64,000 nucleotides of DNA from Clostridia bacterium (GTDB taxonomy: Bacteria > Bacillota > Clostridia > Christensenellales > Aristaeellaceae): the NCBI GenBank assembly GCA_017443295.1, contig JAFSNT010000230.1:1709-65708 (forward strand), given 5' to 3'. Shown here piece after piece: positions 2,037-56,385 of this stretch. A program made the translations under genes and the position numbers. The stretch's first letter is position 1. Each line of letters opens with the position of its first letter. The notes under the pieces are model-generated. The model was not told where the DNA came from and ran no database searches. It saw only the letters and a list, made by a program, of their open reading frames with translations.

Positions 2037-2849
2037 TCAGTCGTCCGCTTCCCGGGATTCCGCGCCGTTGGCCAGGGCCTTGGCGTATTTCTCGGTCATG
2101 AGGTCGATGGAATAGAGGTACGGTTCGCCGTTGATGGCGGCCTCGCATTCCCGGATATCCTGATAGGCGGGATCGGTCTTCATCTGGGCGATGATGGCGC
2201 CCATGCGCTCCTTGTCCAGGTAGAAGGGCTGGCGGGCGAAGTAGTACACGGGGGTGGGGGTGGGGAAAGCCTTGCAGTTGAAGCGCACCATTTCCGCCAC
2301 AGTGCGGGCGTCGTCCTTTTCCAGGGTCAGCACGGCGATTTTGGCGTAATTGTTCGCCATCAGTTCGTCGGAATAGAAGTATTCGTCCTTCTGGCCCTTT
2401 ACGGACTGAATGTCCTTGCAGCTTTCGTCCGCTTTGAGCTGGGCCAGCAGGGCGTCAACGTCCTCCTCGTCCTTGGCGATGAGGGCCTTGGGGGTGATGA
2501 GGGCCGATTTGCAGCGCTCCCGAATGAATTCGGCCAACAGCTGGGCCTTGGTCTTTTCCGGCTCCGGGGGCTGCTCCGGTTCCGGCGCGGAGGGCGGGAA
2601 GGGGTCTTCCACGTCGGGCAGGGACTGCATGTAATCGAAGATATCCGGCTTTTCCGCCGGGGCGGCGGGCTGAGTTTCCCCGGCAGCCTCCATGGCCTGC
2701 TGCTGCATGACCCGTTTTTCCAGCTTGGGGTTGTCCAGCTCCTTGTTCACGGCGGGGTCCAGCGCGTCGCTGAATTCGCCGGGGATCTCGCTGGGCTTGA
2801 GCTCCACTTCCTTGGAGAAGCCGGGCTTGCGGCGTCCGAATAATGCCAT
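2037..2849 (-). CDS. hypothetical protein with internal duplicated C-terminal module
   Basis: ORF 2037..2876 trimmed to the ATG at 2849, with AAGGAGG about 8 nt upstream; the upstream ATGs sit on the RBS. A Pro/Glu-rich linker is followed by two similar modules (..DEYFYSDELMANNYAKI.. and ..GEPYLYSIDLMTEKYAKA..). No family recognised. Confidence 0.6.
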   Translation of the reverse strand: MALFGRRKPGFSKEVELKPSEIPGEFSDALDPAVNKELDNPKLEKRVMQQQAMEAAGETQPAAPAEKPDIFDYMQSLPDVEDPFPPSAPEPEQPPEPEKTKAQLLAEFIRERCKSALITPKALIAKDEEDVDALLAQLKADESCKDIQSVKGQKDEYFYSDELMANNYAKIAVLTLEKDDARTVAEMVRFNCKAFPTPTPVYYFARQPFYLDKERMGAIIAQMKTDPAYQDIRECEAAINGEPYLYSIDLMTEKYAKALANGAESREADD

Positions 2850-2862
2850 TTCCATGACCTCC

Positions 2863-3900
2863 TTATGCGTTGTCAAAGGTGATGGTCTGCCGTCCCGCGT
2901 CCACCGCAGCCTGCACCCCGAAAGGCAGGATGCACCGAGGCCGGGCGTGGCCGATGTTCAGGTTGCACAGGATGGGTAAGTCCGGCTTGCCAATCACTTC
3001 CGTCAGCAGCTTTTTATATTCCGTGTGGTAGGTTTCGTCCATGGGCTTGCCTGCCAGCACGCCGCTGATCGCGTCAAAGACGCCGGTGCTTTTCAGTTTC
3101 AGCAGCGCCTGTTCGTATTTTTCCGGCGGCATCTTTTCTTCGCAGGATTCCAGCAGCAGGATGCGGCCCCGCCAATCCTCCAGGGACGGGAACAGCCCGT
3201 ATTTTTTGCACAGAACGGGCATATCCCCGTACCGTTCGCCGTCAAAGAAATCATACAGGGAATCGATGCAGCCGCCGAGGATTTTCCCTGAAAACCGTTC
3301 CGGCCCTTGCAGCAGTTCAAAGCCCTGATTGGGATGATCGGGGGTCGGTTTTCCGACCTGATCCGGGCCGAAATTGGTTCTTTCCTCGTACCAAATATCG
3401 CTGGGCGTCACTTGCCGGATGGTGCCGGTTTCGATCAGTTCTTCAAAATACTTCCGGGTATACGGCAGCATTTCTTTGTCCATCTCGCACACGTCCGCCA
3501 GGAAGGACTGGCCGTAAAAGGACCTTGCGCCTACCTTGTGCAGCATCAAATGATTGATGGTTGTATCGGAAAAACCCAAAAACACCTTGTCCGTTACGGC
3601 TTTTTTTAATTCGTCATGGTCAAACAGGTACGGCAGCAGCCGGTAGGTATCGTCCCCACCGTTGGCGCACAGGATCATGTCCACCTCGGGATCCTGATAA
3701 GCTGCCAGCAGGTCCTCCGCCCGTTTTTCCGGGTGCTCCTTCACGTAATCGATCCCTTTCAGCGCATGGGGCATGAAACGCACCGATAAGCCGTAAGCCT
3801 CCAGGCGCTTGATCCCAATATCCAGTTCGTGTTTCACAAACGGCTCCCCGATGATGCCGCTGGACAGGCTGACAATGGCGACGGTTTTGATCTTTTGCAT
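2863..3900 (-). CDS. LD-carboxypeptidase / peptidase S66 (LdcA/MccF-like)
   Basis: 345-aa ORF starting MQKIKTVAIVSLSSGIIGE... Length and N-terminal pattern are typical of the S66 family. Assignment by recall. Confidence 0.65.
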   Translation of the reverse strand: MQKIKTVAIVSLSSGIIGEPFVKHELDIGIKRLEAYGLSVRFMPHALKGIDYVKEHPEKRAEDLLAAYQDPEVDMILCANGGDDTYRLLPYLFDHDELKKAVTDKVFLGFSDTTINHLMLHKVGARSFYGQSFLADVCEMDKEMLPYTRKYFEELIETGTIRQVTPSDIWYEERTNFGPDQVGKPTPDHPNQGFELLQGPERFSGKILGGCIDSLYDFFDGERYGDMPVLCKKYGLFPSLEDWRGRILLLESCEEKMPPEKYEQALLKLKSTGVFDAISGVLAGKPMDETYHTEYKKLLTEVIGKPDLPILCNLNIGHARPRCILPFGVQAAVDAGRQTITFDNA

Positions 3901-4054: not shown

Positions 4055-4098
4055 CTGGGGGAAACCGCTCTTTGGCTACAAAGAGCGGTTTCCCCCAG
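4055..4098. repeat. perfect palindrome, 20-bp stem with 4-nt loop (REP-like)
   Basis: ctgggggaaaccgctctttg gcta caaagagcggtttcccccag. The arms are shared with 12681-12794. Confidence 0.9.
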
Positions 4099-7275: not shown

Positions 7276-7854
7276 CTATTTCGCCAGCCGCGCGATGATC
7301 TCCGCGCAGGCTTCCAGGCCCAGGGCGCCGCTGTCCAGGGCCAGGTGGTAATTGTTCAGATCGCCCCACTTGCGGTCGGTATACAATTGGTAGTACGCCT
7401 TGCGCTTTTTATCCTTGTCCTTGAGGCGCTGGAAGGGATCCTCGGCGCGTTCGCCGTACTGGTGTACGATGCGCTCCGCCCGCTTTTCCATGGAGGCGTG
7501 AATGAACACCTTGAGCAGGTCGTCCCGGTCGTCTAAGATGTAATCGGCGCAGCGGCCGATGAGTACGCAGGGGCCTTTGTCCGCGATTTCCCGGATCACC
7601 TTGGTCTGGGCGCGGGTCAAATCGTCCTGGAGGGAATGGCCGTAGAAATCCCGCCCGGCGGTGAAGGACAGCCAGCCCCCCGTCACGTTTTCGGAATTTT
7701 CCTCCACATAGGCCCGGATCAGGCCGCTTTCCTCGGCGATTTTGTCGATCAGCTCCTGATCGTAGCAGGGAACGCCCAATTTTTCCGCCGCCATGCGGCC
7801 GATGGTTCGCCCGCCGCTGCCAAATTCGCGGCTGATGGTAACGATTTTGCTCAT
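7276..7854 (-). CDS. cytidylate kinase-like family protein
   Basis: MSKIVTISREFGSGGRTIG P-loop-like start, typical of the Cytidylate_kin2 family. 192 aa. Confidence 0.7.
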   Translation of the reverse strand: MSKIVTISREFGSGGRTIGRMAAEKLGVPCYDQELIDKIAEESGLIRAYVEENSENVTGGWLSFTAGRDFYGHSLQDDLTRAQTKVIREIADKGPCVLIGRCADYILDDRDDLLKVFIHASMEKRAERIVHQYGERAEDPFQRLKDKDKKRKAYYQLYTDRKWGDLNNYHLALDSGALGLEACAEIIARLAK

Positions 7855-7874
7855 AATAAAGCTCCCTTCTGGTC

Positions 7875-7955
7875 AGAGTTGAGAGTTGAAATTGTATGGC
7901 CTGATATATTCGGATTTTGAACGATTCGACTATCTAAATCTCAACTCTCAACTCT
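7875..7955. repeat. heptad-arm hairpin element A (AGAGTTG flavour, 15-bp perfect arms)
   Basis: agagttgagagttga at 7875-7889 is the exact reverse complement of 7941-7955. 51-nt AT-rich loop. Confidence 0.9.
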
Positions 7956-7960
7956 TTTTT

Positions 7961-8419
7961 TCATTTCGTTTCGCACAATACCTTCACCACGGCTTTCCGG
8001 CACACTGCCGGGCCTTTTTCCGGCAGGCCGGGGGCATGGGCCTCGCCGGGCAGGAAGATCACGAACTGATTTTCCCACAGGGTGAATTCCACCGCGTTCT
8101 CCACCTGGGTCACTTCCCGGAAATCCCCGTTCAGGGGACCCGGCACGCCTTTGCCCCACCGGAAGCGTTCGCTGCCCCGCAGGATCAGTTGGATATCGGC
8201 GTAGCGGTCGTGGGCCTCGAAGCCCGGCTCCTTCTCCTGCTGGGTGTATTCCTGCATGAGTACGAACACGTTTTCCCCGTCGATTTCGTGCTTTCCCACG
8301 GGCAGGGCGGCAAATTCGCCCGCCTCCAGGAATCGAACCGCGGCGGCGAAATGCTTCCCTAACCGGGCGTAATCAAAGGAAAACCCCTTTCCCTTTTCAG
8401 GCAACTGACCAATCAGCAT
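7961..8419 (-). CDS. yhcH: YhcH/YjgK/YiaL (EbgC-like, DUF386) family protein, sialic-acid associated
   Basis: MLIGQLPEKGKGFS..HDRYADIQLILRGSE pattern of the YhcH family. Start is ambiguous between 8419 and 8428. Sits in a nan-type neighbourhood. Confidence 0.7.
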   Translation of the reverse strand: MLIGQLPEKGKGFSFDYARLGKHFAAAVRFLEAGEFAALPVGKHEIDGENVFVLMQEYTQQEKEPGFEAHDRYADIQLILRGSERFRWGKGVPGPLNGDFREVTQVENAVEFTLWENQFVIFLPGEAHAPGLPEKGPAVCRKAVVKVLCETK

Positions 8420-8436
8420 AACAACCATCCTTTCAT

Positions 8437-8534
8437 AAAAAGTGGAAATTGGAAAGTGAAAAGTGAAAATTTGAACAGCCGAATGTAAGGGCAAAATAAA
8501 TCTTCACTTTCCACTTTTAACTTTTCACTTTTTT
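8437..8534. repeat. heptad-arm hairpin element B (AAAAGTG/GAAAGTG flavour, ~5 heptads per arm)
   Basis: Left arm 8437-8471 and right arm 8501-8534 are imperfectly complementary. The right arm touches the stop codon of the GntR gene. Confidence 0.85.
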
Positions 8535-9240
8535 ATAATTCTTCGTAGGAGTCCATCTTCAAATACTTCCCCGACGAGTAATGCGCCAGCATAGTCAGCA
8601 CGAACGCCTGATAATCGTAGGCCTCCAGGGCGTCCACGATTTTTTCGTGCTTGGTGACGGTGCTGGCCAGATGGGGCATTTTGGCCTCCAGCTGGAAGCC
8701 CGCGTCCGCCGCCCATATAGCCTCCAGCATGGAATTCAGCACCATATTATTGAGGGAACGGAACAGGGCCATATGGAAGCGGCGGTCCGCGTCGGCGAAC
8801 ATTTCGCCCTTTTCCCACTGGCTTCTGATCTCCCCGGCGCAGGCGCGCATTTCGGCGATATCTTCCTTTGTAATGGAAAGAAACGCCTCCCGCATGAAGC
8901 TCAGCTCCAGCGCCCGGCGGATGGCGAACATTTCCCGCACCGGCTTGTCCTGGCCGTCCATATGGAAAAACAGCACGTTCTGGAAGATGAAATCCAGGCT
9001 GAATTCCTGCACCTCCGTGCCCCGGCCCGGGCAGGCCCGCACCATGCCCATCAGCTCCATGCTTTTGATGGCTTCCCGAAGCACGTTGCGGCTCACCCCT
9101 AACTGGGTACACAGCTGCTGCTCCGTGGGCAGCAAGTCCCCCGCCGCCAGATGATTTTCCATGATATAGCTGCGAACCTCCCGGAACGCCTGGATGTACA
9201 GCTTTTCGTTCTTTCCAATGTCTGTCACGGACGATCCCAC
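8533..9240 (-). CDS. GntR/FadR-family transcriptional regulator (NanR-like by context)
   Basis: N-terminal winged-helix segment LPTEQQLCTQLGVSRNVLREAIKSLE.. plus a FadR-type all-helical C-domain. Divergent from the ABC/nanA operon. Confidence 0.8.
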   Translation of the reverse strand: MGSSVTDIGKNEKLYIQAFREVRSYIMENHLAAGDLLPTEQQLCTQLGVSRNVLREAIKSMELMGMVRACPGRGTEVQEFSLDFIFQNVLFFHMDGQDKPVREMFAIRRALELSFMREAFLSITKEDIAEMRACAGEIRSQWEKGEMFADADRRFHMALFRSLNNMVLNSMLEAIWAADAGFQLEAKMPHLASTVTKHEKIVDALEAYDYQAFVLTMLAHYSSGKYLKMDSYEEL

Positions 9241-12680: not shown

Positions 12681-12794
12681 TCTGGGGGAAACCATTCTTT
12701 GCCGTCCGGGGCCTTCCGGCCCGGTCTCCGCTGAAAACCGGCCCAAGGGCAGGTTTTCCGGGCGCTTCGACCCCAAAGAATGGTTTCCCCCAGA
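12681..12794. repeat. same palindrome arms enclosing a 72-nt structured insert
   Basis: tctgggggaaaccattctttg (12681-12701) and caaagaatggtttcccccaga (12774-12794). Inner hairpins include ccggggccttccggcccgg. Confidence 0.85.
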
Positions 12795-12870: not shown

Positions 12871-13785
12871 ATGAGCCTTGAAAAATATTGCGGCATCATT
12901 CCCGCCTTTTACGCCTGCTACGACGAGCAGAACGAAGTGAGCGAAAAGGCCGTCCGCGCCCTGGCCCGGCATATGGTGAACAAGGGCGTGAAAGGCCTCT
13001 ATGTGGGCGGCTCCTCCGGCGAATGCATCTACCTGGAAAAGGAAGAGCGCATGAAGAACTTAGAAGCCGTCATGGCCGAAGTGAAAAGCGAATGCACCAT
13101 CATCGCCCACGTGGGCTGCAACAACACCCGGGAATCCATGCAGCTGGCCGCCCACGCTGAAAGCCTTGGGGTAGATGCCATCGCCTCCATCCCGCCCATT
13201 TACTTCCACCTGCCGGAATACTCCATCGCCCAGTATTGGAACGATATTTCCTCCGCCGCGCCCAACACGGATTTCATCATCTACAACATTCCCCAGCTGG
13301 CGGGCGTGGCCCTCACCGCCCCCCTCTTCAAGGAAATGCTGAAAAATCCCAAGGTGGTCGGCGTGAAAAATTCCTCCATGCCCACCCAGGACATCGACAC
13401 CTTCGTGCGCATCGGCGGCGAGCGCTGCGTGGTCTTTAACGGCCCCGACGAGCAGTTCCTTTCGGGCCGCGCCATCGGCGCGGGCGGCGGCATCGGCGGC
13501 ACCTACGGGGCCATGCCCGAGCTGTTCCTGAAAATGGACGCCCTGGTGAAGGAAGGCCGCTACAAGGAAGCCGAACCCATCCAGCACGAGGTGAACGCCA
13601 TCATCACCGAGCTGTGTTCCTGCAAGGGCAACATGTACGCCGTCATCAAGGCCGTGCTGAAAATCAACGAGGGCTTAGAGCTTGGCTCCGTCCGCAAGCC
13701 CCTCACCGGCCTCCAGGACGGCGATATGCCCAAGGCGGAAATCGCCGCCAAGCACATCCGGGAAGCCATCAGGAAGTTCTGCTAA
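12871..13785 (+). CDS. nanA: N-acetylneuraminate lyase (DHDPS/NanA family)
   Basis: ATG at 12871, 8 nt after AAAGGAG. The sequence ..IIPAFYACYDEQNEVSEKAVRALARHMVNKGVKGLYVGGSSGE.. is typical of NanA. Context includes yhcH, a GntR regulator and a sugar ABC importer. Confidence 0.75.
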   Translation: MSLEKYCGIIPAFYACYDEQNEVSEKAVRALARHMVNKGVKGLYVGGSSGECIYLEKEERMKNLEAVMAEVKSECTIIAHVGCNNTRESMQLAAHAESLGVDAIASIPPIYFHLPEYSIAQYWNDISSAAPNTDFIIYNIPQLAGVALTAPLFKEMLKNPKVVGVKNSSMPTQDIDTFVRIGGERCVVFNGPDEQFLSGRAIGAGGGIGGTYGAMPELFLKMDALVKEGRYKEAEPIQHEVNAIITELCSCKGNMYAVIKAVLKINEGLELGSVRKPLTGLQDGDMPKAEIAAKHIREAIRKFC

Positions 13786-13796
13786 ATGATTCTCTG

Positions 13797-13834
13797 TCGG
13801 CAGCGCCGTTTCCGCACGGTGCTGCCGATTTTTT
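13797..13834 (+). terminator. intrinsic terminator of nanA
   Basis: 13-bp stem tcggcagcgccgt/acggtgctgccga followed by TTTTTT. Confidence 0.75.
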
Positions 13835-13949
13835 GGAAAAGTGAAAAGTGGAGAGTGAAAAGTGAAAATTTGAATAGAAAATGCCTTGTGTCTGCCGATT
13901 ATTTTCGGCCATATCTATTTCCACTTTCCACTTTTCACTTTCCACTTTC
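13835..13949. repeat. heptad-arm hairpin element C (AAAAGTG/GAGAGTG flavour)
   Basis: Left arm 13835-13871, right arm 13917-13949. Same flavour as B, and the loop starts with the same tttgaaNag. Confidence 0.85.
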
Positions 13950-18557: not shown

Positions 18558-18815
18558 CTAAAAGTTCGTCCAGAAGAAAGCTTTCAGCTTGAGGACGGCT
18601 TCGTATTCGTCCTCGCCCTCCAAGGTCACCTTCACCGTGTCGCCCTGACGGATGCCCAGGCCCATGAGCCCTAAGATGTTCTTGGCGTCGGCTGTTTTTT
18701 CATCCTTGGCAACGGAAACGGCGCAGGCGTACTGCCGCGCTTCCTTCACCAAAATCCCCGCGTGGCGGGCGTGCATCCCCACGGGGGCCTTGATGGTGTA
18801 CATGAAGGACTGCAT
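18558..18815 (-). CDS. ptsH: HPr-family phosphocarrier protein (His15 present, Ser46 replaced by Asn)
   Basis: 85 aa. GMHARHAG corresponds to GIHARPA. The regulatory-site region reads ADAKNILGLMGLG instead of ..KSIMGVMSLG. Confidence 0.8.
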   Translation of the reverse strand: MQSFMYTIKAPVGMHARHAGILVKEARQYACAVSVAKDEKTADAKNILGLMGLGIRQGDTVKVTLEGEDEYEAVLKLKAFFWTNF

Positions 18816-18848: not shown

Positions 18849-18958
18849 AGAGTTGAGAGTTAAGAGTTGAGAGTTGAGATCATATAGTGGTCATCATGGA
18901 AGAATCGCATTTGATGCACTATATACATCTCAACTCTCCGCTCTCAACTCTCAACTCT
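18849..18958. repeat. heptad-arm hairpin element D (AGAGTTG flavour, 32-nt arms)
   Basis: agagttgagagttaagagttgagagttgagat versus the reverse complement of 18927-18958. Mismatches occur only in the central heptad. 46-nt loop. Confidence 0.9.
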
Positions 18959-18969
18959 ATTTGACCCAA

Positions 18970-20553
18970 TCAGATTTCCAAGAGATTACTAAACGCCTTT
19001 AACGCCCCGTCGGTATCGTGGGCCAGGACGCGCTTGGCCAGCACCTTGCCTAACTGCACGCCCTCCTGGTCGAAGCTGTTCAGGTTCCACACAAAGCCTT
19101 GGAACATGACCTTGTTTTCAAAATGGCTGAGCAGCGCGCCAAGGGCTTCCGGGGTGAGCTGTTTGCCGATGATGATGGAGGAGGGCCGTCCGCCCGCAAA
19201 ATTCTTGTTGGGATTGGCGTCGGTCTTGCCGCAGGCGAAGGCCATGATCTGGGCCGCTACGTTGGCGCACAGCTTCTGCTGGCTGGTGCTGCCCTGGATA
19301 TCCACGTCCATGCCCGCCTGATTCTGGCTGAAGCCCACGAACTGGAGCGGCACGATGTCGGTGCCCTGGTGCAAAAGCTGATAGAAAGAGTGCTGGCCAT
19401 TGGTGCCCGGTTCGCCGAAGATGATGGGGCCGGTCACGCAGGACACGGGCTCGCCGAAGCGGTTCACGCTCTTGCCGTTGCTCTCCATATCCAGCTGCTG
19501 CAAGTGGGCGGGGAAGCGGGAAAGGGCCTGGGAGTAGGGCAGCACGGCGGTGGCGGGATAACCCTGCACGTTGCGCTCGTACACGCCGATGAGGGCGTCC
19601 AGCATGGCGGGGTTCTGTTTGATGTCGGCGTTCTTGGCGAGGGCATCTTCTTCCGCCGCGCCGCTTAAGAACCGGGCGAACACCTCCGGCCCAAAGGCCA
19701 GGGACAGCACCGCGCCGCCTACGCAGGAGGTGGAGGAATAGCGGCCGCCGATGTAATCGTCCATGAAGAAAGCGGCCAGGTAATCACTGCTGCTGGCCAG
19801 GGGGCTGGTTTCGCTGGTGACGGCCACCATATGATTGGCAGGATCCAACCCGGCGTTTTTCAGCGCGTCCTTCACGAAGGCTTCGTTGGTCAGGGTTTCC
19901 AGGGTGGTGCCGGATTTGCTCACCAGCACGAACAGGGAATGGGGCAGGTCGATGGACTTTAACACGCTGGCCGCGTCGTCGGGGTCCACGTTGCTGATGA
20001 ACCGGGCTTCCATTTTGAAGCACCCGTTCTGCTTAGCCCAGTTTTCCAGCGCCAGATACATGGCACGGGGGCCCAAATCGCTGCCGCCGATGCCGATCTG
20101 CACCACGGTGGTGAACTTTTCACCGGCCGCGTTGGTGATTTCCCCCGCGTGTACCTTCTTGGCGAATTCCGCCGCTTTCTGCTGCTGGGCCACGTAGAAG
20201 TCCCGCTTGTTCACACCGTCGGCAGTCACGTCGCTGCCAAGCTGACCACGGGTCAATTGATGCAGCACCAGGCGCTTTTCGCCGGTGTTGATCACCGCGC
20301 CGTCGTACAGCGCTTCGTACTTTTGCGTGAGCTGGGCTTCGTCGGCCAGGGCCTGCAGTGCGGACAGCACTTCATCGTCCACCTGCTTGGCGGCGTAATG
20401 GTAGGTCAGCCCTGCGGCCATGGGCGCGGCGTATTCCGCAACGCGCTTGGCCCCGTTTTCCCCGGCCATGGCTTCTTGCAGGTTCACATGGTTTTTCAGT
20501 TCGTTCAGCTTGCCGTAGGCGGGCAGCATATCAAGATTTTTCCAGGAAATCAT
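18970..20553 (-). CDS. pgi: glucose-6-phosphate isomerase
   Basis: ORF trimmed to the ATG at 20553 (MISWKNLDMLPAYGKLNELK, RBS AAAGGAAAG). Long-type PGI, ~527 aa, with ..GIGGSDLGP.. and ..FDQEGVQLGK.. motifs. Confidence 0.9.
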   Translation of the reverse strand: MISWKNLDMLPAYGKLNELKNHVNLQEAMAGENGAKRVAEYAAPMAAGLTYHYAAKQVDDEVLSALQALADEAQLTQKYEALYDGAVINTGEKRLVLHQLTRGQLGSDVTADGVNKRDFYVAQQQKAAEFAKKVHAGEITNAAGEKFTTVVQIGIGGSDLGPRAMYLALENWAKQNGCFKMEARFISNVDPDDAASVLKSIDLPHSLFVLVSKSGTTLETLTNEAFVKDALKNAGLDPANHMVAVTSETSPLASSSDYLAAFFMDDYIGGRYSSTSCVGGAVLSLAFGPEVFARFLSGAAEEDALAKNADIKQNPAMLDALIGVYERNVQGYPATAVLPYSQALSRFPAHLQQLDMESNGKSVNRFGEPVSCVTGPIIFGEPGTNGQHSFYQLLHQGTDIVPLQFVGFSQNQAGMDVDIQGSTSQQKLCANVAAQIMAFACGKTDANPNKNFAGGRPSSIIIGKQLTPEALGALLSHFENKVMFQGFVWNLNSFDQEGVQLGKVLAKRVLAHDTDGALKAFSNLLEI

Positions 20554-22368: not shown

Positions 22369-22376
22369 ACAGTTTT

Positions 22377-22476
22377 CAGAGTACAGAGTGCAGAGTTCAG
22401 ATTATTTAGTCAATATCATCAGCGTACCTGCAATAATGTAAACTATCTTCATCTGAACTCTGTACTCTGAACTCTC
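22377..22476. repeat. heptad-arm hairpin element E (CAGAGTN flavour, 26-nt arms)
   Basis: Left arm 22377-22402 versus right arm 22451-22476, 23/26 complementary. Wedged between convergent genes. Confidence 0.9.
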
Positions 22477-23017
22477 TATCTCCCATCACATGGTATTCTT
22501 TCCCCTCCAGTGTCTTCCACCGGAACACGCCGTCCTTCAGCGTCATATAGCCGCGGGCGGTGTTTTCTTTTGGGATAGATACTGAGCCGGGGTTCAGATA
22601 CCAGTATTCCCCCCGGTTTTCCCAGGCGGGCACGTGGGTGTGGCCGTGGAGCAGGATATCCCCCTTTTTCAGGGGCGGCGGGTTTTGCGTGTTGAAATGG
22701 TGCCCGTGGGTGGCAAACAGCACCCGGCCCTCCACCTCCAGCAGAGCGTAATCCGCCATTATAGGAAATTGCAGCACCATCTGGTCCACCTCCGTGTCGC
22801 AATTGCCGCGCACGCACAGGATATCCTGCCTGCGCTCGTTCAGCAGGGCGATCACTTCCTTGGGCGCGTACCCTTCCGGCAGATCGTTCCGGGGGCCATG
22901 ATACAGCACGTCGCCCAACAACAGCAGCCGATCCGCCTTTTCCCGATCATAGGCTTCCAGCATTTCCCTGCAAAATACCGCCGATCCGTGAATATCCGAC
23001 GCGATAAACAGCTTCAT
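22406..23017 (-). CDS. yfcE: YfcE-family metallophosphoesterase with repeat-encoded C-terminal tail
   Basis: ORF 22406..23254 trimmed to MKLFIASDIHGS at 23017. Motifs GDVLYHGPRN, GNCD and GHTH are present. The last ~25 codons run through the heptad hairpin at 22377-22476. Confidence 0.8.
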   Translation of the reverse strand: MKLFIASDIHGSAVFCREMLEAYDREKADRLLLLGDVLYHGPRNDLPEGYAPKEVIALLNERRQDILCVRGNCDTEVDQMVLQFPIMADYALLEVEGRVLFATHGHHFNTQNPPPLKKGDILLHGHTHVPAWENRGEYWYLNPGSVSIPKENTARGYMTLKDGVFRWKTLEGKEYHVMGDREFRVQSSDEDSLHYCRYADDID

Positions 23018-23243
23018 ATTCCTTTTCCCCCTTCTGAATAACCCTTCGTTCCGCGTCTTTTTATTGTAACCGGATCGGAATAAACCGTCAAGCGTTCGGC
23101 TGAAAACAACCGTCGGCGGCAAACGTGAATCGTTGATTCTTTTTCCCCATCCCGTCATTTGGGACTGGGCAGGAGAGGCAAAATGTGGTATACTGGGGAT
23201 GTTCATTCCACCCCGCATTATCACCGGATGAGGAGCGATCATT

Positions 23244-25844
23244 TTGAGGAGCATAGAAAAAGGACTCGTCTACACCAACGACAAATGCATCGGCTGCAAC
23301 AAGTGCATCCGCGCGTGCAGCTGCATCGGGGCCTGCGTATCCACGGAGCCGGACGAAAACGGTAATTCAAGGATCATGGTGGACGGCAGCCTCTGCGTGG
23401 CCTGCGGCGCCTGCTTTGATATCTGCGAGCATAACGCCCGCGATTTTGTGGACGATACCGAACGGTTCTTTGACGATCTGAAAAAAGGCGAAAAGATTTC
23501 GCTGCTGGTTGCTCCCGCCTTCCCCGCCAATTATCCGGATACCTGCGCCAGGGTTTTGGGCAAGCTGAAAGAATTGGGCGTGAACCGCATCATCAGCGTT
23601 TCCTTCGGCGCGGACATCACCACCTGGGGATATATCAATTACATTCAGCAGCATGATTTTTCAGGCGGCATTTCCCAGCCCTGCCCGGCGGTGGTGGGCT
23701 ATATCGAGCGGTATTTGCCGGAGCTGCTGCCCAAGCTCTTCCCCGTGCAAAGCCCCCTCATGTGCGCCGCTATTTACGCGAAAAAGGAATTAGGCGTCAC
23801 GGATAAGCTGGCCTTTATCAGCCCGTGCATCGCCAAAAAGTTAGAAATCGACGACCCCAACAATCACGGGTACGTCAGCTATAACGTGACCTTCAAGCAC
23901 CTGATGGATTACGCCGAAAAATTCAATTTGTACGGGGAACCCTGCCGGGATGAAATGGAATACGGCCTCGGCTCCATCTATCCCATGCCGGGGGGGCTCA
24001 AGGAAAACGTGCTGTGGCTCCTGGGCCAGGACGCGTTCATCCGTCAGGTGGAGGGCGAAAAAAGGCTGTTCCACTACCTGGAAAAAAACAAGGAGCTGCT
24101 GCGGGACGGAAAGACGCCCTTCCTGTTCGTGGACGCGCTCAACTGCGAAAAGGGCTGCATCTGCGGCACGGGCACCGATATGGCCCTGGCCGTCACCGAT
24201 CATTCGCTGTACCATCTGCACGACATCAAGGAGGCCGTGGAAAAGGATACGGCCGGCAGCGCCTGGTCCCGGAACGCCGCGCCGGAGGAAAGGCTGGCCT
24301 GCCTCAACAAACAGTTTGAACACCTGAACCTGGAAGACTATCTGCGCTCCTATACGGACCGGTCGGCCCAATGCACCCTGCGCATTCCCGATCCCGAAGA
24401 GCTGGAAGCCATCTTCCTGGAAATGAACAAGACCGACGAAGCCTCCCGGCACATCAACTGCTCCTGCTGCGGCTATGACACCTGCACGGAAATGGCGACG
24501 GCGATCCACAACGGCTTCAATCACAAGGAAAACTGCATCCATTACTTGAAGGACATGTATGTGAAGAAGGCCGCCGAAACCGACATCATGACCGGCCTGC
24601 CCAACGCCGCCGGGTTCAGAACCTTCGTCAACAGAATGTGGGCGGCGGGAAAGCTCACGTCCTACAACGCGTTCTACCTGAACGTAAAGAGCTTCGGCCT
24701 GATCAATAAAAAGTACGGAAAGCAGGAGGCGGACCATATCATCATCCGCTTCGCGGAGCTGCTTTTATCGTATACCGACGATGACGAGTGCGCGGGCCGC
24801 CTGTCCGGCGACACGTTCATCCTCATGGTGCATAAAGAAAAGACCGACGCCGTGCTGAAGCTGACCTCCGGCGTGGATATCCGCGCCTCCCTGAACGGCC
24901 AGGAAGAAATGGCGACCCTGCAGGCCATCGCGGGCTGCCTGGATATCGACGACGACGAAATGGACAGCGAGGGGATCATCGGCAGATGCTCCACGGCGCT
25001 GAACGTGGCAAGATACGACAAGCACGCGCCCTATTTATTCTCAACGCCTGAAATGCACAAAAAGGCCATTCATCAAAAGCAAATTCTTTCCGTGTTCGCC
25101 GAGGCTTTGGAAAAGGGCGAGTTCCAGCCCTACTATCAGCCTAAGGTCAACACCAAGACCAAGACCCTGGCCGGCGCGGAAGCCCTGGTGCGCTGGATCA
25201 GAGACGGAAAGACCATCACCCCCGGCGAATTTATTCCGATTCTGGAGACCGGCGACAGCATTTGCATGCTGGATTTCTATATTTTCGAGCAGGTGTGCAA
25301 GGATATCCGCCGGTGGATGGACGCGGGCATCGAGCCGGTGCGCGTGTCGACGAATTTCTCCCGCAAAAACTTGGCCGATCCCGAGTTTTCCCAAAAAATC
25401 AGGAAGATCCTGACCGCCTATAACATCCCCAAGCAGCTGATCGAGGTGGAAATCACCGAAACCATGAGCGAGGAAGACAACGAGCGGCTGAGAAGGTTCA
25501 TCAGCGATATGCACGATTCCTCCATCGCCATGGCCATCGACGACTTTGGAACGGGGTATTCTTCTTTGAATATCCTGCGGGATTTCTCCGCCGACGTGCT
25601 GAAATTGGATAAATCCTTCATTGACGGCCACACGGGCACCAAACGCGACAGCGTGGTGGTTTCCAACGTGGCAAAAATGGCCAACGAGCTGAACATGAGC
25701 GTGATCACCGAGGGCGTGGAGAACTGGGATCAGGTCAACTTCCTGAAAAGCGTCAATATTGATATGGTGCAGGGCTTCCTGTTCGACAAACCCCTCCCGA
25801 AGGGAGATTTTGAACAGCGGCTGAGAAATAAAACGTATGACTGA
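23244..25844 (+). CDS. [FeFe]-hydrogenase-like FeS sensor domain fused to degenerate GGDEF and intact EAL (putative c-di-GMP phosphodiesterase)
   Basis: TTG start 8 nt after GAGGAG. Two CxxCxxCxxxC ferredoxin motifs. Hydrogenase large-subunit-like motifs SQPCPAV, SPCIAKKLE and NCEKGCICGTG. CSCCGYDTC FeS domain. GGDEF slot reads RLSGDTF. EAL-domain motifs AEALVRW, EVEITE, DDFGTGYSSL, KLDKSF, EGVE and QGF. Confidence 0.85.
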   Translation: MRSIEKGLVYTNDKCIGCNKCIRACSCIGACVSTEPDENGNSRIMVDGSLCVACGACFDICEHNARDFVDDTERFFDDLKKGEKISLLVAPAFPANYPDTCARVLGKLKELGVNRIISVSFGADITTWGYINYIQQHDFSGGISQPCPAVVGYIERYLPELLPKLFPVQSPLMCAAIYAKKELGVTDKLAFISPCIAKKLEIDDPNNHGYVSYNVTFKHLMDYAEKFNLYGEPCRDEMEYGLGSIYPMPGGLKENVLWLLGQDAFIRQVEGEKRLFHYLEKNKELLRDGKTPFLFVDALNCEKGCICGTGTDMALAVTDHSLYHLHDIKEAVEKDTAGSAWSRNAAPEERLACLNKQFEHLNLEDYLRSYTDRSAQCTLRIPDPEELEAIFLEMNKTDEASRHINCSCCGYDTCTEMATAIHNGFNHKENCIHYLKDMYVKKAAETDIMTGLPNAAGFRTFVNRMWAAGKLTSYNAFYLNVKSFGLINKKYGKQEADHIIIRFAELLLSYTDDDECAGRLSGDTFILMVHKEKTDAVLKLTSGVDIRASLNGQEEMATLQAIAGCLDIDDDEMDSEGIIGRCSTALNVARYDKHAPYLFSTPEMHKKAIHQKQILSVFAEALEKGEFQPYYQPKVNTKTKTLAGAEALVRWIRDGKTITPGEFIPILETGDSICMLDFYIFEQVCKDIRRWMDAGIEPVRVSTNFSRKNLADPEFSQKIRKILTAYNIPKQLIEVEITETMSEEDNERLRRFISDMHDSSIAMAIDDFGTGYSSLNILRDFSADVLKLDKSFIDGHTGTKRDSVVVSNVAKMANELNMSVITEGVENWDQVNFLKSVNIDMVQGFLFDKPLPKGDFEQRLRNKTYD

Positions 25845-32445: not shown

Positions 32446-33951
32446 TTACTGCAAATCGGTGCGGATCACGTATACGGTGACGGCCTGCATGCCCTCGGGG
32501 CGGAGATCGTAGCCCCCGTTCCGGGCCTGATCCCGGGTCTGCTCGTACAATTCAAGAATATGAAGCGCGTCGCGCTGCACGTAGGGCAGGGCCAGGGCGG
32601 CCAGCTGCTTTTCCGCGGTCTGCACGGTGGATTTCACCTTGGCGGTGCCGTTCTTTTGCAGCTTTTCCGCGTCCTTTTGCAGCGCCGCCGCGCTGTCCTT
32701 GAGGGCGATGAGACCGGCGTTCAGGGCGTCGGCGCTCTGGGCCGCCTGGGCCGCGGATTCGGTATAGGCTTTCAGGCTGTTCACGAGCTGCACGGTCTGC
32801 TCCAACTGGGCTTTCAGGGCGGCGAGCTTGGCGGTTGTGTTTTCATCCTGGCCCTGGGCGGCATTGTCCAGCGCCTGGGCGTAGTTTTCCGCCGTCAGCT
32901 CGGACACGGTGACGCCGAAAGCGGCCAATTGCGTTTGGGTAGACTGGAAAGCGGCGGAAAGCAGGGCATTGGCCTGGGCGTTCAGGGCGTCGCCGCTGGT
33001 CTGCAAGCCGTTCAGGGCGGTTTGCAGCGTTCCGGCGTTGGTCTTAGCTTCCCCGGCGCGGTTTGTCAATTCCTCCGCGCTGCCCTTGAGGGCCTGGGCG
33101 CTTTCGTCCAGCTTGACCACATTATGGTTAAAGTCGTTCACCTGGCCCAGCACGATATTGGTCTTCAGGTTTTTCAGGCCCGGCTGCATGGGCACGTCCT
33201 CCCCGTTTTTCAGGGCGGTGAGCAGGGATTCGGCCAGGGTCAGGGTGTCCCGCAGATCAATGGGCAGCCTTTCGTCGATTTCCTGGGCGGCCAGCCGGAT
33301 GGGGTCGGCGGAAATCAGGGTCATCATCCAGCTCAGATCGGCGTGATCGGCGTGGAAGGACACGGTGAAGTGATCCGGCAGGCCCAAATCCGCGTCCACC
33401 CCCGGCGCGGCGTACCCCACCAGCACCCGCTGGCCCGCTTCGGACAGGATCATGGCGTTTTCCGCATGGATATTCGTCATGCCTGCGCCGTCCAGGGGCA
33501 GCAGGGTCACGGCCAGGGCGGGCAGGGCGCTTACGGAACGGTAGGAAACGGTGAGTACCGCTTCGCCGGTCTTGTTTTTCAATTCGGCGGCGGTGACCGT
33601 TTCTCCTTCCAGGGTCAGGGAGACTGTCGGCAGGATGGCCGGAGTCTGATCGGAGGTTCCCTGGTAAACGATATCGTTCCCCTGGGCCTGCCAGATCAGG
33701 GCGTCCCCGTCCCGGGTGAAGGCTTCGTCGCCGCTCATGTTTTCAATGCCGGTCAGCAGGGAAACGTCGGCGATTTCCGAAAGCCCCTCCTTGTTTTCCA
33801 GGCGGACGCTGTCGGTCAGGCTCCGGATTTCCCCGTCGGGTCCGGCCACGATATACACCCGTTCATGCTTGATGTTTTCCCCTAAGGCGGGCGCGCAGCA
33901 GCCCATCAGAAACGCGGCGGCCAGCAGCGCGGCAAGCAGCTTTTTCATCAT
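32446..33951 (-). CDS. lipoprotein with YhgE/Pip-like coiled-coil (xxxLxxG heptad) region
   Basis: Signal peptide with lipobox FLMGC. Central Ala/Gln/Leu-rich repeats (..AGTLQTALNGLQTSGDALNAQANALL..). Downstream of the MMPL gene on the same strand. Confidence 0.6.
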   Translation of the reverse strand: MMKKLLAALLAAAFLMGCCAPALGENIKHERVYIVAGPDGEIRSLTDSVRLENKEGLSEIADVSLLTGIENMSGDEAFTRDGDALIWQAQGNDIVYQGTSDQTPAILPTVSLTLEGETVTAAELKNKTGEAVLTVSYRSVSALPALAVTLLPLDGAGMTNIHAENAMILSEAGQRVLVGYAAPGVDADLGLPDHFTVSFHADHADLSWMMTLISADPIRLAAQEIDERLPIDLRDTLTLAESLLTALKNGEDVPMQPGLKNLKTNIVLGQVNDFNHNVVKLDESAQALKGSAEELTNRAGEAKTNAGTLQTALNGLQTSGDALNAQANALLSAAFQSTQTQLAAFGVTVSELTAENYAQALDNAAQGQDENTTAKLAALKAQLEQTVQLVNSLKAYTESAAQAAQSADALNAGLIALKDSAAALQKDAEKLQKNGTAKVKSTVQTAEKQLAALALPYVQRDALHILELYEQTRDQARNGGYDLRPEGMQAVTVYVIRTDLQ

Positions 33952-33990: not shown

Positions 33991-34100
33991 GAAGGTAGGA
34001 GGTAGGAAGTAGGAGGTAGGAGGTTTTATTATGTTCATAAAAGTGCAGGGTTTCTTCCTTTTGTGGACTATATATGCTTCCTACCTCCTACTTCCTACCT
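33991..34100. repeat. heptad-arm hairpin element F (GGTAGGA/AGTAGGA flavour)
   Basis: aggtaggaagtaggaggtaggagg (34000-34023) versus the reverse complement of 34077-34100, 23/24. Confidence 0.9.
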
Positions 34101-34135: not shown

Positions 34136-36202
34136 TTACCTCGCGGCTTTCATGTCAAAAGTCGTATGAACGATCAGTTTATCCAGCAGCAGCAGCACGG
34201 CGGGCAGCAGCAGCAACACCACCGCCACAGAAATCAGCGCGCCCCGTGCGATGAGGCGGCACATGGTGGAAATGATCGCCACGTTGGAATACAGGCCCAC
34301 GCCGTAGGTGGCGGCGAAGAACCCGATGCCGCTGACCAGCACGCTTTGGGCCGAGGACGCGGTGGCCTGGTTCACGGCTTCCGCCTTATTCATGCCATTC
34401 AGGCGGTTCTGCTTGTAGCGGGTGGTGAGCAGGATGGCGTAGTCCACCGTCGCGCCCAATTGAATGGTGGAAATCAGGATCGGCCCCACGAAGGGCAATT
34501 CCTCATGCAGATAGCAGGGCACGCACAGGTTGGCGGCGATAGCCAGCTCGATGATGGCCACCAGCAGCACCGGCAGGGTCAGGGATTTTTGCACCAGCAG
34601 GATAATGACGAAAATGGCGGCGATGGAAACGAGGCTGACCACCGTGAAATCGTGGTCGGTACAGGCGATCAGGTCCTTGGTGCAGGGAGCCTCGCCGATG
34701 AGCATGCCGCCCTGGTCGTATTTCTTCAAAATCCCGTTCAGCACGTCGATCTGGGCGTTCACCTCGTCGGTGGAAATGACGTAGGCGGAATTGATCAGCA
34801 TGAGCTGATAGCGGTCGCTTTTGATAAGGGAAAGCACGTCCCCGGGCACGATGGATTCCGGGATGCCCGCGCCCAGCAGGCTGTCCACGCCGATCACGGC
34901 CTTCACCCCGTCCACCTGCCGCATTTCCTCCGTCATGGCCCGCACGTTCTTCTGGGACACGTCGGCGTCCACCAGCAGCAGGTGGGTGGTGGCCATATCG
35001 AAGGTTTCGGCCAGCTTTTTGTTGGCGATGATGGAGGGCAGCTCCTGGGGCATGACCTTGCTCATGTCGTAATACACGGGCGCGTTCATGTAGCCGTAAA
35101 ACGCCGGAACGATCATCAGGGCCAGCACCGCGCACAGCGCCTTATAATGCTTGCTGACGAAGCTGCCTAAGAAATGCAGGTTGGGCAGCAGGGGCTTGTG
35201 GCTGGTTTTTTCGATGGCCCCGTCCAGGGCGCGAATCACGCAGGGCAGCAGCACCACCGTGCCCAGCACGCCCAGCACCACGCCCTTGCTCATGACCACG
35301 CCCAGATCCCGGCCTAAGGTGAAGCTCATGAAGCAGATGGAAATGAAGCCCGCCACGGTGGTCAGGCTGGAGCCGAGGATGGAGGTGAAGGTCAGGCGGA
35401 TGGCGTTTGCCATGGCCTCGTCCTTATCGTTGGTCAATTGCTTTTGCTCCTTGTAGCTGTGCCACAGGAAAATGGAATAGTCCAACGTGACGCCCAGTTG
35501 CAGCACAGCGGCCACGGCCTTGGTGATGTAGCTGATTTCCCCGAAGAAGTAATTGGTGCCCATGTTGTACAGCACGGAAACGCCGATGCAGCACAGGAAA
35601 ATCAGCGGCAGCAAGAAGGAATCCATGGTGAGCGTCAGCACCAGGGCGCACAGCGCCACGGCGATGCCCACGTAGATGGCTTCCTGATCCTCCACCAATT
35701 GCTTGGTATCCGTCACCACGGCGGACAGGCCGCACACGAAGCACTTTTCCCCCGCCACGGCCCGCACCCGCCGAATGGCCTCCATGGTTTCCTCGGCGGA
35801 GGAGCCCGAATCAAAGAACACGGCGGACAGCATGCAGTCCCCCCGCTGAAACAGCTCCCGGTAGTCGGTGGGAATGATTTCCACCGGCAGCGCGCCCTTT
35901 GTGATGGAGGCATAGCCGATCACCGATTCCACGTGGGGGATCTCCCGGATGGCGTTTTCCATTTGCTCCTGCTCCCGAAGGGGCATGCCCTCCGTGATCA
36001 GCAGGGAGAAAGCGCCCTTGCCGAAATCCTGCAACAGGATTTCCTGCCCCCGCACCGTTTCCAGCTCCTGGGGCAGATAATACAGCAGATCGTATTTGGT
36101 CTTGGTGGCGGCCATACCCAGCGCCGAGGGGATCATAAGCAGCAGGCATATCACGATCACCAGCGCGCGGCGTCGCACCAGCCATTTGGCAAAGCCCTTC
36201 AC
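34136..36202 (-). CDS. MMPL-family (RND superfamily) membrane transporter
   Basis: GTG start with AGGGAGG 8 nt upstream. 688 aa, two 6-TM bundles each preceded by a large loop. Confidence 0.85.
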   Translation of the reverse strand: MKGFAKWLVRRRALVIVICLLLMIPSALGMAATKTKYDLLYYLPQELETVRGQEILLQDFGKGAFSLLITEGMPLREQEQMENAIREIPHVESVIGYASITKGALPVEIIPTDYRELFQRGDCMLSAVFFDSGSSAEETMEAIRRVRAVAGEKCFVCGLSAVVTDTKQLVEDQEAIYVGIAVALCALVLTLTMDSFLLPLIFLCCIGVSVLYNMGTNYFFGEISYITKAVAAVLQLGVTLDYSIFLWHSYKEQKQLTNDKDEAMANAIRLTFTSILGSSLTTVAGFISICFMSFTLGRDLGVVMSKGVVLGVLGTVVLLPCVIRALDGAIEKTSHKPLLPNLHFLGSFVSKHYKALCAVLALMIVPAFYGYMNAPVYYDMSKVMPQELPSIIANKKLAETFDMATTHLLLVDADVSQKNVRAMTEEMRQVDGVKAVIGVDSLLGAGIPESIVPGDVLSLIKSDRYQLMLINSAYVISTDEVNAQIDVLNGILKKYDQGGMLIGEAPCTKDLIACTDHDFTVVSLVSIAAIFVIILLVQKSLTLPVLLVAIIELAIAANLCVPCYLHEELPFVGPILISTIQLGATVDYAILLTTRYKQNRLNGMNKAEAVNQATASSAQSVLVSGIGFFAATYGVGLYSNVAIISTMCRLIARGALISVAVVLLLLPAVLLLLDKLIVHTTFDMKAAR

Positions 36203-40181: not shown

Positions 40182-40247
40182 GCATTCCTTTCGGATTCTG
40201 TGTTCCTCTCCGGCCAGGGCACGTCTGCCCCGGCGCGGCCCGCATCC

Positions 40248-40504: not shown

Positions 40505-40518
40505 CACAGAGTTCAGAT
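40505..40518. repeat. truncated heptad hairpin (left-arm end of E flavour only)
   Basis: cacagagttcagat plus the loop start atttatatggtc resembles 22389-22412. No right arm nearby. Lies at the left edge of the low-GC segment. Confidence 0.55.
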
Positions 40519-40569
40519 TTATATGGTCGATCAATTTGAGCATTTTCGCGTCACAAAACCCGCATGGGC

Positions 40570-52690: not shown

Positions 52691-52713
52691 TATATGAACT
52701 CTCAACTCTTAAC
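52691..52713. repeat. truncated heptad hairpin (loop end plus right arm of AGAGTTG flavour only)
   Basis: tatatgaactctcaactcttaac. The reverse complement of the arm, gttaagagttgagagttc, matches the left arm of element D at 17/18. Contains the dxr stop codon. No left arm. Confidence 0.6.
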
Positions 52714-56276: not shown

Positions 56277-56385
56277 GTGGGAGGTAGGAGGTAGGAAGTA
56301 GGAGGTTTTATCTTGTTCACAAAAGCGAAAAGCTGCCGTTCTCGACAATAATATACCTCCTACTTCCTACCTCCTACCTCCTACT
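56277..56385. repeat. heptad-arm hairpin element G (GGTAGGA/AGTAGGA flavour, 30-nt arms)
   Basis: Left arm 56277-56306 versus right arm 56356-56385, 29/30. The right arm contains the stop codon of the FMNAT gene. Arms are nearly identical to element F. Confidence 0.9.

Follow-up and report, generated by a model that had tools for sequence, protein, structure and literature searches.

What are the hairpins, with arms made of tandem seven-nucleotide units, that lie between core genes of a gut bacterium, and how did they come to be there? The question is raised by a 64,000-nt stretch (hereafter the window, taken at its full length) of the chromosome of an uncultured Clostridia bacterium from ruminant-gut metagenomes. 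The window is core chromosome with a GC content of about 58%; its genes include polC, ispG, rseP, dxr, cdsA, uppS, frr, ribF, pgi, ptsH and a sialic-acid cluster, and the closest genomes in the species collection are rumen metagenome-assembled genomes (MAGs) labelled ‘Clostridia bacterium’. A first-pass annotation had listed seven full hairpins in this stretch, and all seven were recovered in our analysis. We call them c1 to c7; an eighth, c8, lies outside the window in the same strain, and L-numbers denote the other contigs and loci that were compared. Judging from their sequences and from the corresponding sites in relatives, c1 to c8 are interspersed, insertion-polymorphic palindromic repeats that were copied as whole hairpins.

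The copies were sought with an inverted-repeat search, with Tandem Repeats Finder (TRF) and with a detector of our own, which looks for a tandem array of period p and then for its reverse complement within 110 nt. c1 to c7 are the longest close inverted repeats in the window, with arms that are 83–100% complementary and 25–57 nt apart, and TRF reports period-7 arrays on both arms of each copy. At p = 7, the detector returned exactly these seven copies and nothing else; at p = 4, 5, 6, 8, 9, 10, 11 and 12 it found no hairpins in the window, and at no time did it find one in 100 block-shuffles of the window. The arms of each copy match each other, with a complementarity of 0.94 to the own partner against an average of 0.65 to the arms of other copies. 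Compared with its dinucleotide shuffles, every copy also folds far better, with z from −4.9 to −14 over the two strands; the stems are AT-rich and 15–35 bp long and the loops 25–57 nt. The periodicity and the pairing are far beyond chance, and the common architecture with a strict 7-nt period, as first described, is upheld. Copies that are base-for-base identical occur in 18 independent metagenome contigs from several assemblers, so that an assembly artefact is ruled out; c8 was reached through a right-end extension of the same strain (~7.4 kb past the window) obtained by exact-protein look-up, and a look-up of this kind at the left end returned no record. There is no unit-number polymorphism among these 18 contigs of the strain, and phase variation was rejected as a candidate.

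Homology between copies extends over whole hairpins. c8 and c6, which lie at unrelated loci and in opposite orientation, are 89.6% identical over 106 nt, the whole loop included, and c8 has one extra heptad in one of its arms. c7 belongs to their subfamily but has diverged further, with 83% column identity in the c6/c7 alignment. Outside the arm tips, the flanks of these three copies have no significant similarity and no direct repeat. Because the homology stops at the arm tips, the copied unit is arm–loop–arm. No target-site duplication was found at c6, c7 or c8, and the pairs of filled and empty sites offer only ambiguous A-runs, at the c4 and c7 sites. Loop-proximal sequence is also common to c4 and c5, to c1, c2 and the remnant at 52691, and to c3, the remnant at 40505 and a copy in L095. 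The arms gain and lose 7-nt units as wholes, array length varying and unit type being kept between c4 and its counterpart in L091, between c2 and that in L117, and between c6 and c8. The truncated copies that the first-pass annotation had placed at 40505-40518 and 52691-52713 are real remnants. The first matches the left arm and the loop start of c3 and of the L095 copy, and its 16-nt CAGAGTTCAGATTTAT is identical to L095; the second has an orthologous half-copy in L121, also behind the dxr stop. The copies and their settings are collected in Table 1, in which, as in the text, a dash between two gene names (oppA–oppB) stands for the gap between them.

Table 1. Coordinates and settings of the hairpins, their remnants and the Bacteroidales arrays (window positions unless a contig is named).
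Name	Position	Strand	Arms and loop	Setting
c1	7875..7955	unstranded	AGAGTTG x2 arms, 49-nt loop	5 nt past yhcH stop (7961-7963), 20 nt ahead of start of cytidylate-kinase-like (cmk-like) gene (7852-7854); both genes on - strand
c4	8437..8534	unstranded	RAAAGTG x4 arms	right arm abuts or overlaps stop of GntR/FCD regulator gene (8533-8535); left arm ends 17 nt ahead of yhcH ATG (8417-8419)
c5	13835..13949	unstranded	RAAAGTG x4.7 arms	past nanA-like DHDPS gene (dihydrodipicolinate-synthase family; stop 13783-13785), immediately behind its canonical terminator (13796-13829 plus T-run); 99 nt to D-Ala-D-Ala carboxypeptidase gene
c2	18849..18958	unstranded	AGAGTTG x4.4 arms	10-11 nt past pgi stop (18970-18972), 33 nt ahead of HPr (ptsH) start (18813-18815)
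c3	22377..22476	unstranded	AGAGTNC x3.5 arms	8 nt past stop of sodium:solute symporter gene (Pfam SSF; + strand)
c6	33991..34100	unstranded	RGTAGGA x4.6 / x3.1 arms	35 nt past stop of MMPL-family membrane transporter gene (34136-34138), 39 nt ahead of next - strand gene (start 33949-33951)
c7	56277..56385	unstranded	RGTAGGA x4 arms	ribF (FAD synthetase) stop TAG (56381-56383) lies inside arm
c8	L140:6488-6603			outside window, ~2.5 kb past window position 64000, same strain; oppA–oppB
remnant	40505..40530	unstranded	AGAGTNC subfamily: 1.5 heptads and loop start, without right arm	adjoins 3′ end of GNAT acetyltransferase gene
remnant	52691..52713	unstranded	AGAGTTG subfamily: two heptads and inner AT-rich box	directly behind dxr stop
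Bacteroidales array	L124 (NZ_OY725943.1) 33138-33236
Bacteroidales array	L127 (NZ_OY725936.1) 25382-25442
Bacteroidales array	L127 (NZ_OY725936.1) 34006-34040
Bacteroidales array	L125 (OY725986.1) 209-281

Since c4 and c1 bracket yhcH, the first-pass annotation had seen the gene as flanked like a cassette. Integron-like or other gene cassettes would make the hairpins attC-type sites and yhcH the mobile cassette, and attC sites do resemble the window elements in being structure-defined, sequence-variable imperfect palindromes (57–141 nt) at the 3′ ends of open reading frames (ORFs). The comparison with five contigs (L091–L095), which encode YhcH at 89–67% identity, refutes this at the yhcH locus. 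Between the GntR gene and yhcH, both the window and L091 have a hairpin; L093, L094 and L095 have none, and their stop is followed directly by the ribosome-binding site (RBS). The insertion appears to be precise and without loss of flanking sequence. Between yhcH and the cmk-like gene, the window has its hairpin, L091 and L094 have nothing, L092 and L093 have decayed remnants, and L095 has another flavour. In all five relatives, with two, one or no hairpins, yhcH keeps its place between the GntR gene and the cmk-like gene, and gene order is independent of the hairpins. Unlike attC, the elements have no conserved core sites and form no cassette array: the attC core RYYYAAC ... GTTRRRY is absent from most flavours, and only AGAGTTG comes close (GTTGAGA), failing at the last position. 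The genes next to them, which run in both orientations, have housekeeping functions (pgi, ribF, frr, dxr, polC), and no integrase is found among the window ORFs scanned, about 54 in number. We give a cassette system next to no credence. As an observation apart, most of the GntR/FCD gene is deleted in L092 (520-720), its promoter and first codons being fused near the yhcH RBS.

Orthologous sites were also compared at ribF and pgi. At the ribF–frr site, c7 is missing from L120 and from L132, the latter only 9% diverged at four-fold sites of frr. In both relatives ribF reads on to a stop within ...CAAGGAAACGCTTGCTTAA, and the ancestral ribF end sequence survives in the window downstream of c7. 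By this comparison, c7 was inserted into the 3′ end of ribF, whose stop codon it now supplies. ribF terminates within c7 because heptad arrays carry stops in all frames: most purine-rich arms contain TGA, TAG or TAA, and, as 7 is not a multiple of 3, an array of at least three units has a stop in all three. A different, non-heptad palindrome is found at this site in L121. At the pgi site, L117 keeps an orthologue of c2 with nearly identical arms, including a CGG/CCG variant unit that is paired in L117. The loops of the two are 23% diverged, compared with 15–22% at four-fold sites, and the arms about 9% diverged compared with 23% for the loop, although these numbers are small. This is the only orthologous loop that can be aligned, and it diverges at about the neutral rate. 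Filled, empty, decayed or otherwise occupied in relatives, the orthologous sites show the presence/absence polymorphism for which a check had been proposed, and they point to insertion, slow decay and loss over about 10–25% synonymous divergence.

The c3 site differs in its flanks. In two strains with 99% identical SSF (L118 and L119), the place of c3 and the metallophosphoesterase gene is taken by a canonical GC-rich terminator and another downstream gene, so that c3 lies at a synteny breakpoint (22369-22560). In the window, the convergent metallophosphoesterase ORF (22406-23254, − strand) crosses the right arm of c3 and stops in the loop (22406-22408), its last ~22 codons and its stop codon being supplied by c3 (22406-22476). 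A copy at a break between such close strains would suit an explanation in which the hairpins are scars of healed double-strand breaks: an activity like that of a reverse transcriptase or a polymerase would add heptads to both 3′ ends, in a telomerase-like way, and the ends would be joined with filler, as in a head-to-head telomere fusion. Break healing would predict the universal polarity of the arms, in which, for all ~20 hairpins, the same strand points 5′ to 3′ to the centre; it would also predict that the two arms differ in unit number, that centres are unique and that no target is duplicated. The units are telomere-like in size and in G/T/A composition. However, random filler would not give whole loops that are homologous at unrelated loci, as in c6/c8 (90%) and c6/c7, and the insertion between the GntR gene and yhcH appears precise, with no flanking loss. 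No such enzyme is encoded in the window, and to our knowledge no bacterial enzyme that heals breaks by adding heptads has been described. We consider this origin very improbable.

In the first-pass annotation, the flavours were said to share architecture and period but not sequence, a statement that has to be revised. When the 19 distinct consensus heptads, taken from every array met, are rotated to the optimum, they align in one register, R-G-A-R-T-K-N, with A at position 3 in 19/19, a purine at position 4 in 19/19 and T at position 5 in 16/19. This register has an information content of 6.85 bits, a value that none of 200 shuffles of the letters within units reaches (6.00 ± 0.22); as the 19 heptads are not phylogenetically independent, the register is a description and not a strict test. 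Some units, such as AGAGTTG and AGAGTTC, are one base apart. On this alignment, all flavours are related through one degenerate unit, RGARTKN. Polarity is common to them as well: in all ~20 hairpins found, and on both strands, the purine-rich (AGT) arm is 5′ and the pyrimidine-rich (ACT) arm 3′. The purine-rich arms are almost without C and cannot pair with themselves. The units of the window (AGAGTTG, RAAAGTG, AGAGTNC and RGTAGGA) have no GGG runs of the kind that form G-quadruplexes. Contiguous 7-nt units in two inverted arrays, rather than repeats of 23–50 nt with unique spacers, agree with the earlier verdict that the layout is not CRISPR-like, and the inability of the arms to self-pair agrees with its view that they are unlike classic repetitive extragenic palindromic (REP) sequences.

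A core that returns every 7 nt could also be a binding site. HutP reads NAG-N4 repeats, and HUH Rep proteins read the tandem GAGC repeats of the parvovirus terminal hairpin. It is conceivable that an oligomeric factor reads the ART core of the arrays on DNA (cruciform or duplex) or on RNA, and that the hairpin is a regulatory or nucleoid-associated platform. The invariance of this core, with the other four positions free to vary, would be expected of such an array, as would a period that is strictly 7 in Bacteroidales too and the occurrence of the same units across phyla with unrelated loops. The lone array ahead of a start codon in Bacteroides finegoldii (coaBC–recN) would fit in the same way, since it resembles the TAACTGA arrays of Beggiatoaceae, for which a post-transcriptional regulator has been proposed (PMC4679880). 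However, the flavours are not independent samples, and the core may partly follow from a composition of purines plus one T. Half of the sites in a hairpin are the complement (AYT), and a single-strand reader would meet two motifs. In addition, the sites are dispensable in close relatives, and no candidate protein was identified. A protein-binding array is, in our judgement, quite unlikely to be the explanation.

The inner ends of the arms had been described as an A/T-rich junction on the left and a TATAT/TATCT-like box on the right. Both are present, but they are partly inverted copies of each other and for that reason give no orientation. A universal inner box in the strict form WATAKRGYC was rejected, as it is not enriched in the window (7 found, 3.4 expected) and only subfamily-level loop homology is kept. 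A common orientation of the copies was rejected too: the seven window copies looked co-oriented, but the junction boxes are inverted copies and c8 is inverted with respect to c6. Promoters were considered as well; inward-facing sigma-70-like matches occur in c2 only, where they arise from symmetry (TTGAGA in the arm, TATAGT in the box), and the idea does not generalise. A small ORF in the c6 loop (AGGAGG-N7-ATG, 23 codons) is not conserved in c7 or c8 and was rejected on that ground.

All copies lie in tight gaps at gene 3′ ends and leave the downstream RBS intact, as had been noted; each is downstream of at least one gene 3′ end, and none is within a purely divergent promoter gap. This placement is what one would expect if the elements were host-selected regulatory hairpins, that is, bidirectional terminators, attenuators or stabilisers of mRNA 3′ ends, with heptad slippage tuning the strength of the stem and dispersal being secondary. 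c4 and c7 have an A-run ahead of the hairpin and a T-run behind it, on both strands, and c1 as well as the B. finegoldii copy in the pyrD-like–phoH gap have a T-rich tail. The polarity of the arms, 5′-purine and 3′-pyrimidine, is that of an extended bidirectional terminator made of an A-tract, a stem and a T-tract. Moreover, pgi and the SSF gene have no other terminator in the window, and relatives have canonical GC-rich terminators there. The oppA–oppB and rpsB–tsf gaps are classic sites of intercistronic hairpins; an attenuator is known between rpsB and tsf, and REP hairpins are known in the mal and his operons.

Other observations speak against regulation as the primary cause. Intrinsic terminators have a short GC-rich stem and a loop of 3–8 nt, unlike the stems of 15–35 bp and the loops of 25–57 nt seen here, and a consensus terminator scan calls none of the hairpins. 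A U-tract 3′ of the hairpin is found at c4 and c7 (both strands) and at c1 (+ strand) and is absent at c2, c3 and c6. c5 would be redundant, as it lies directly behind a canonical terminator. Close relatives freely leave these sites empty, and the sense strand has no folding advantage. Nor is there a sign of rapid tuning, given that unit numbers do not vary among the 18 contigs of the strain. The first-pass annotation had proposed selection on a folded structure; the matching arms on which this was based stand, but selection is not demonstrated, being only one explanation beside whole-unit copying and having no sense-strand advantage to show for it. We regard host-selected regulatory hairpins as unlikely, though more than a formal alternative.

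In the surroundings of pgi homologues (1.35 Mb from 80 species), the detector returned hairpins with other units from no more than a few rumen MAGs, which are among the nearest (L019, L020, L054 and L055), and L022, L024 and L029 carry lone or compound heptad arrays. About 58 kb from GC-rich Clostridia with 88–90% identical SSF (L113–L116; not syntenic) contained no elements. A BLAST search with c2 against a plasmid collection led to records of Bacteroides finegoldii and Phocaeicola massiliensis. These PLSDB ‘plasmid’ records carry dnaN, ftsH, lpxB and rpoD, and from this gene content they look like chromosome fragments. The gaps occupied in them are surE–lpxB, pyrD-like–phoH, coaBC–recN and rpsB–tsf. 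A hairpin of AGAGTTG x6 fills the surE–lpxB gap exactly, an AGAGTTG hairpin with an 11-nt loop lies between rpsB and tsf in Phocaeicola, a GAATGAA hairpin lies between convergent genes, and the lone AGAGTTG array of B. finegoldii overlaps the coaBC stop, 9 nt ahead of recN. In these Bacteroidales records the density comes to ~3 per 233 kb, against ~7 per 64 kb in the window. A further AGAGTTG hairpin, whose 14-nt loop is GC-rich, was found on an IMG/VR contig. A phage search with c7, plasmid searches with c7 and c5 and a scan of viral contigs for the GGTAGGA hairpin gave no match.

The elements do not correspond to a described family. Neither the window nor the Bacteroidales copies have an Rfam match at the gathering threshold, and only generic microRNA-precursor hairpins appear below it. 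Literature searches by exact arm sequence returned nothing in a relevant context, and a search for a Bacteroides heptamer stem-loop returned nothing. The closest precedent is found in Xanthomonas, where GGGAATC heptamer arrays are intergenic, variable in length between species, and arranged in 70–75 cases as convergent pairs that are capable of forming a stem-loop (Rehm et al. 2015, PLoS One, PMC4692102). Those pairs and the window elements alike consist of tandem 7-nt units (at least two) in two nearby arrays on opposite strands, in intergenic positions, with the purine/G-rich array first and with a length that varies between related genomes while the type is preserved; GGGAATC is even one base from the GGGGAAT unit of L054. 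The differences are that Xanthomonas has one G-tract unit, studied as a G-quadruplex former, whereas here there are many units, mostly without G-runs, and that the carriers are Clostridia, with copies in Bacteroidales. Also unlike Xanthomonas, the present elements have a fixed, loop-containing architecture, homology of the whole element between dispersed copies, and insertion/absence polymorphism, with one element inserted where a coding sequence ends. For Geobacter metallireducens, ‘class 3’ sites made of paired heptanucleotides have been reported (PMC2700814).

Direct arrays of heptanucleotides are more widely described. TAACTGA arrays occur in Beggiatoaceae, Cyanobacteria and Bacteroidetes, and translational regulation has been proposed for them (PMC4679880); an excess of heptamer simple sequence repeats (SSRs) in bacteria is attributed to polymerase slippage by Mrazek et al. 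(2007), as cited in PMC4692102 and PMC4679880. Cyanobacterial short tandemly repeated repetitive (STRR) sequences and TAACTGA arrays share with the window elements the period of 7, the intergenic position and the frequent location hard against start or stop codons. The reverse complement of TAACTGA, TCAGTTA, matches the CAGTTAA unit of L029 at 6/7 bases, and lone arrays are also present in L022, L024 and B. finegoldii. However, STRR and TAACTGA arrays are direct and almost never form inverted pairs (1/170 in Beggiatoa), whereas every array of the window is half of a hairpin.

We tentatively favour a composite reading, by analogy with known systems: a mobile hairpin that resembles REPINs or MITEs (miniature inverted-repeat transposable elements), has arms that evolve by slippage, and acts on mRNA in the way REP sequences do. 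It seems plausible to us, but we would not yet call it probable. The element is a non-coding palindrome of 80–115 nt, made of a purine-rich arm of 2–5 heptads, a loop of 25–57 nt and a complementary, pyrimidine-rich arm, and its insertions are found in gaps from a stop codon to the following RBS or within the final codons of a gene. It would move as a folded single strand. A trans-acting enzyme of the HUH/Y1 type, encoded outside the window as for REPINs and derivatives of IS200/IS605, may recognise the repeated ART core; HUH Rep proteins bind tandem short repeats in a hairpin stem, as in the inverted terminal repeat of adeno-associated virus. Replication slippage, together with template switching between the arms (quasipalindrome correction), would keep the arms periodic and complementary. 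Transcribed within operons, the element would form a long RNA hairpin in either orientation, as REP does, and could serve as a barrier to 3′ exonucleases, a partial terminator or a site for RNase III. Its tolerated positions in oppA–oppB, in pgi–ptsH and, in Phocaeicola, in rpsB–tsf would be explained by such a REP-like RNA hairpin, and the same role would fit the sites behind pgi and SSF, where the elements stand in place of canonical terminators.

REP and REPIN elements, for whose mobility RAYT transposases are responsible (Bertels & Rainey 2011, PMC3116915; Nunvar et al. 2010, PMC2817692), are the closest mechanistic analogue. Like the window elements, they are non-coding hairpins of ~100 nt in which a spacer separates two inverted arms, and their many copies are dispersed over intergenic gaps; they lie at gene 3′ ends without target duplication and are tolerated in operons, including behind a gene for an ABC substrate-binding protein. 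They occur in other taxa, and the arm sequences of the window elements vary between subfamilies. MITEs (Correia/NEMIS, RUP, BOX and ERIC) are likewise small, non-autonomous and bounded by inverted repeats, with homologous dispersed copies; they can supply stop codons or extend ORFs, and they occupy gaps between co-transcribed genes. However, MITEs have terminal inverted repeats specified by a transposase, a duplicated target site and a recognisable parent insertion sequence (IS), none of which was seen for the window elements, and MITE termini are not built of SSRs. Neither the window nor ~1.8 Mb of related loci showed a parent IS that shares the terminal repeats.

Several observations weigh against the composite reading. 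The look-up of co-occurring nucleases and recombinases, which the first-pass annotation had suggested, came back empty: no transposase, RAYT, Y1 gene, integrase or reverse transcriptase is present among the scanned window ORFs. One enzyme would need to tolerate many heptad variants, and the arms of REP are imperfect palindromes (20–40 nt) with a conserved head, whereas those of the window are heptads that do not self-pair. The AGAGTTG unit occurs with unrelated loops in other phyla, which means that arrays could arise or be selected independently of one mobile family. On the side of RNA, most copies have no U-tract to support terminator activity. G-U pair counts and folding energies, compared between sense and antisense, give no consistent advantage to the sense strand, and in two asymmetric cases the antisense strand folds better. 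Finally, the L091 hairpin (640-760) has c4-type RAAAGTG arms around a loop that resembles that of c1 and not that of c4 (AATTCTATTG...TTCAACGATTCGA, compared with AATTGTATGG...TTGAACGATTCGA in c1), a combination that simple copying and divergence does not predict. Its sequence suggests an exchange of loops or a re-insertion at the same site.

Other repeats and some further features were noted as well. In L117, the distal right arm of the c2 orthologue is replaced by another repeat family, ACTAAATYCCWTCTAAAAG...GGTCAACGTAGCGCTGCTACGCC, which recurs in relatives, as does a further family, GATCCTTCG...GCGCTCAGGATGACA; the loci of the two families are L117:1-150, L119:2525-2622 and L015:1830-2000, and the region downstream of pgi in L016, L024 and L028. 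In L029 (rumen MAG SIG356; 2425-3000 and 7651-8152), AACAGTT, AATGAGK and GGAGTKA arrays bracket blocks of 430–470 nt; inside the blocks a palindromic, GC-rich unit of ~120 nt is present two or three times, forming a compound mosaic like a bacterial interspersed mosaic element (BIME). A second palindromic intergenic repeat, unrelated to the heptad hairpins, occurs in the window at 4055-4098 and 12681-12794. Its core, CTGGGGGAAACC, has 5 matches against 0.76 expected; it forms a tight hairpin in one case and has arms 62 nt apart in the other, and it is also found in the dxr–rseP gap of a relative (L120:8400-8445). Between dxr and rseP, the window has a UPF0175/DUF3368 (PIN-like) gene pair of the toxin-antitoxin type (51859-52871), with the AGAGTTG half-copy at its edge; the corresponding region in L120 and L121 is a gap of only 180–240 nt without the pair. 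The region 40000-43000, where the other remnant lies, is low in GC (49–51%) and holds ORFs without a Pfam match (39582-40451, + strand; 41799-42251, − strand) and, at 41685-41750, a 21-nt inverted repeat, CACAGGGGACGGTTCTCTGTG, with a 24-nt spacer.

An excess of heptanucleotide SSRs has been reported since 2007, and inverted heptamer pairs in Xanthomonas since 2015. The window adds that a pair of this kind can be a true interspersed element, polymorphic in its insertion and with defined boundaries, that many flavours obey one degenerate unit and one strand polarity, and that gut Bacteroidales which can be cultured have this architecture too, down to the AGAGTTG unit itself.

One could imagine, rather speculatively and against our own expectation, that heptad-armed hairpins form a cross-phylum class (Clostridia, Bacteroidales, possibly Xanthomonas and Geobacter) with dedicated machinery that works in 7-nt steps on an R-G-A-R-T-K-N unit of fixed polarity. 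This could be an HUH/Rep-like enzyme that oligomerises on tandem stem units, or a reiterative polymerase or reverse transcriptase. If true, it would for the first time explain by a mechanism why bacterial genomes have their long-noted excess of heptanucleotide repeats, and the question is experimentally accessible because the Bacteroidales carriers can be cultured. The elements lie inside operons of core genes (pgi–ptsH, oppA–oppB, ribF–frr and rpsB–tsf), they can rewrite the 3′ ends of genes, and one of them stands at a synteny break. For these reasons, they matter for how annotation, expression and rearrangement are read in gut and rumen genomes.

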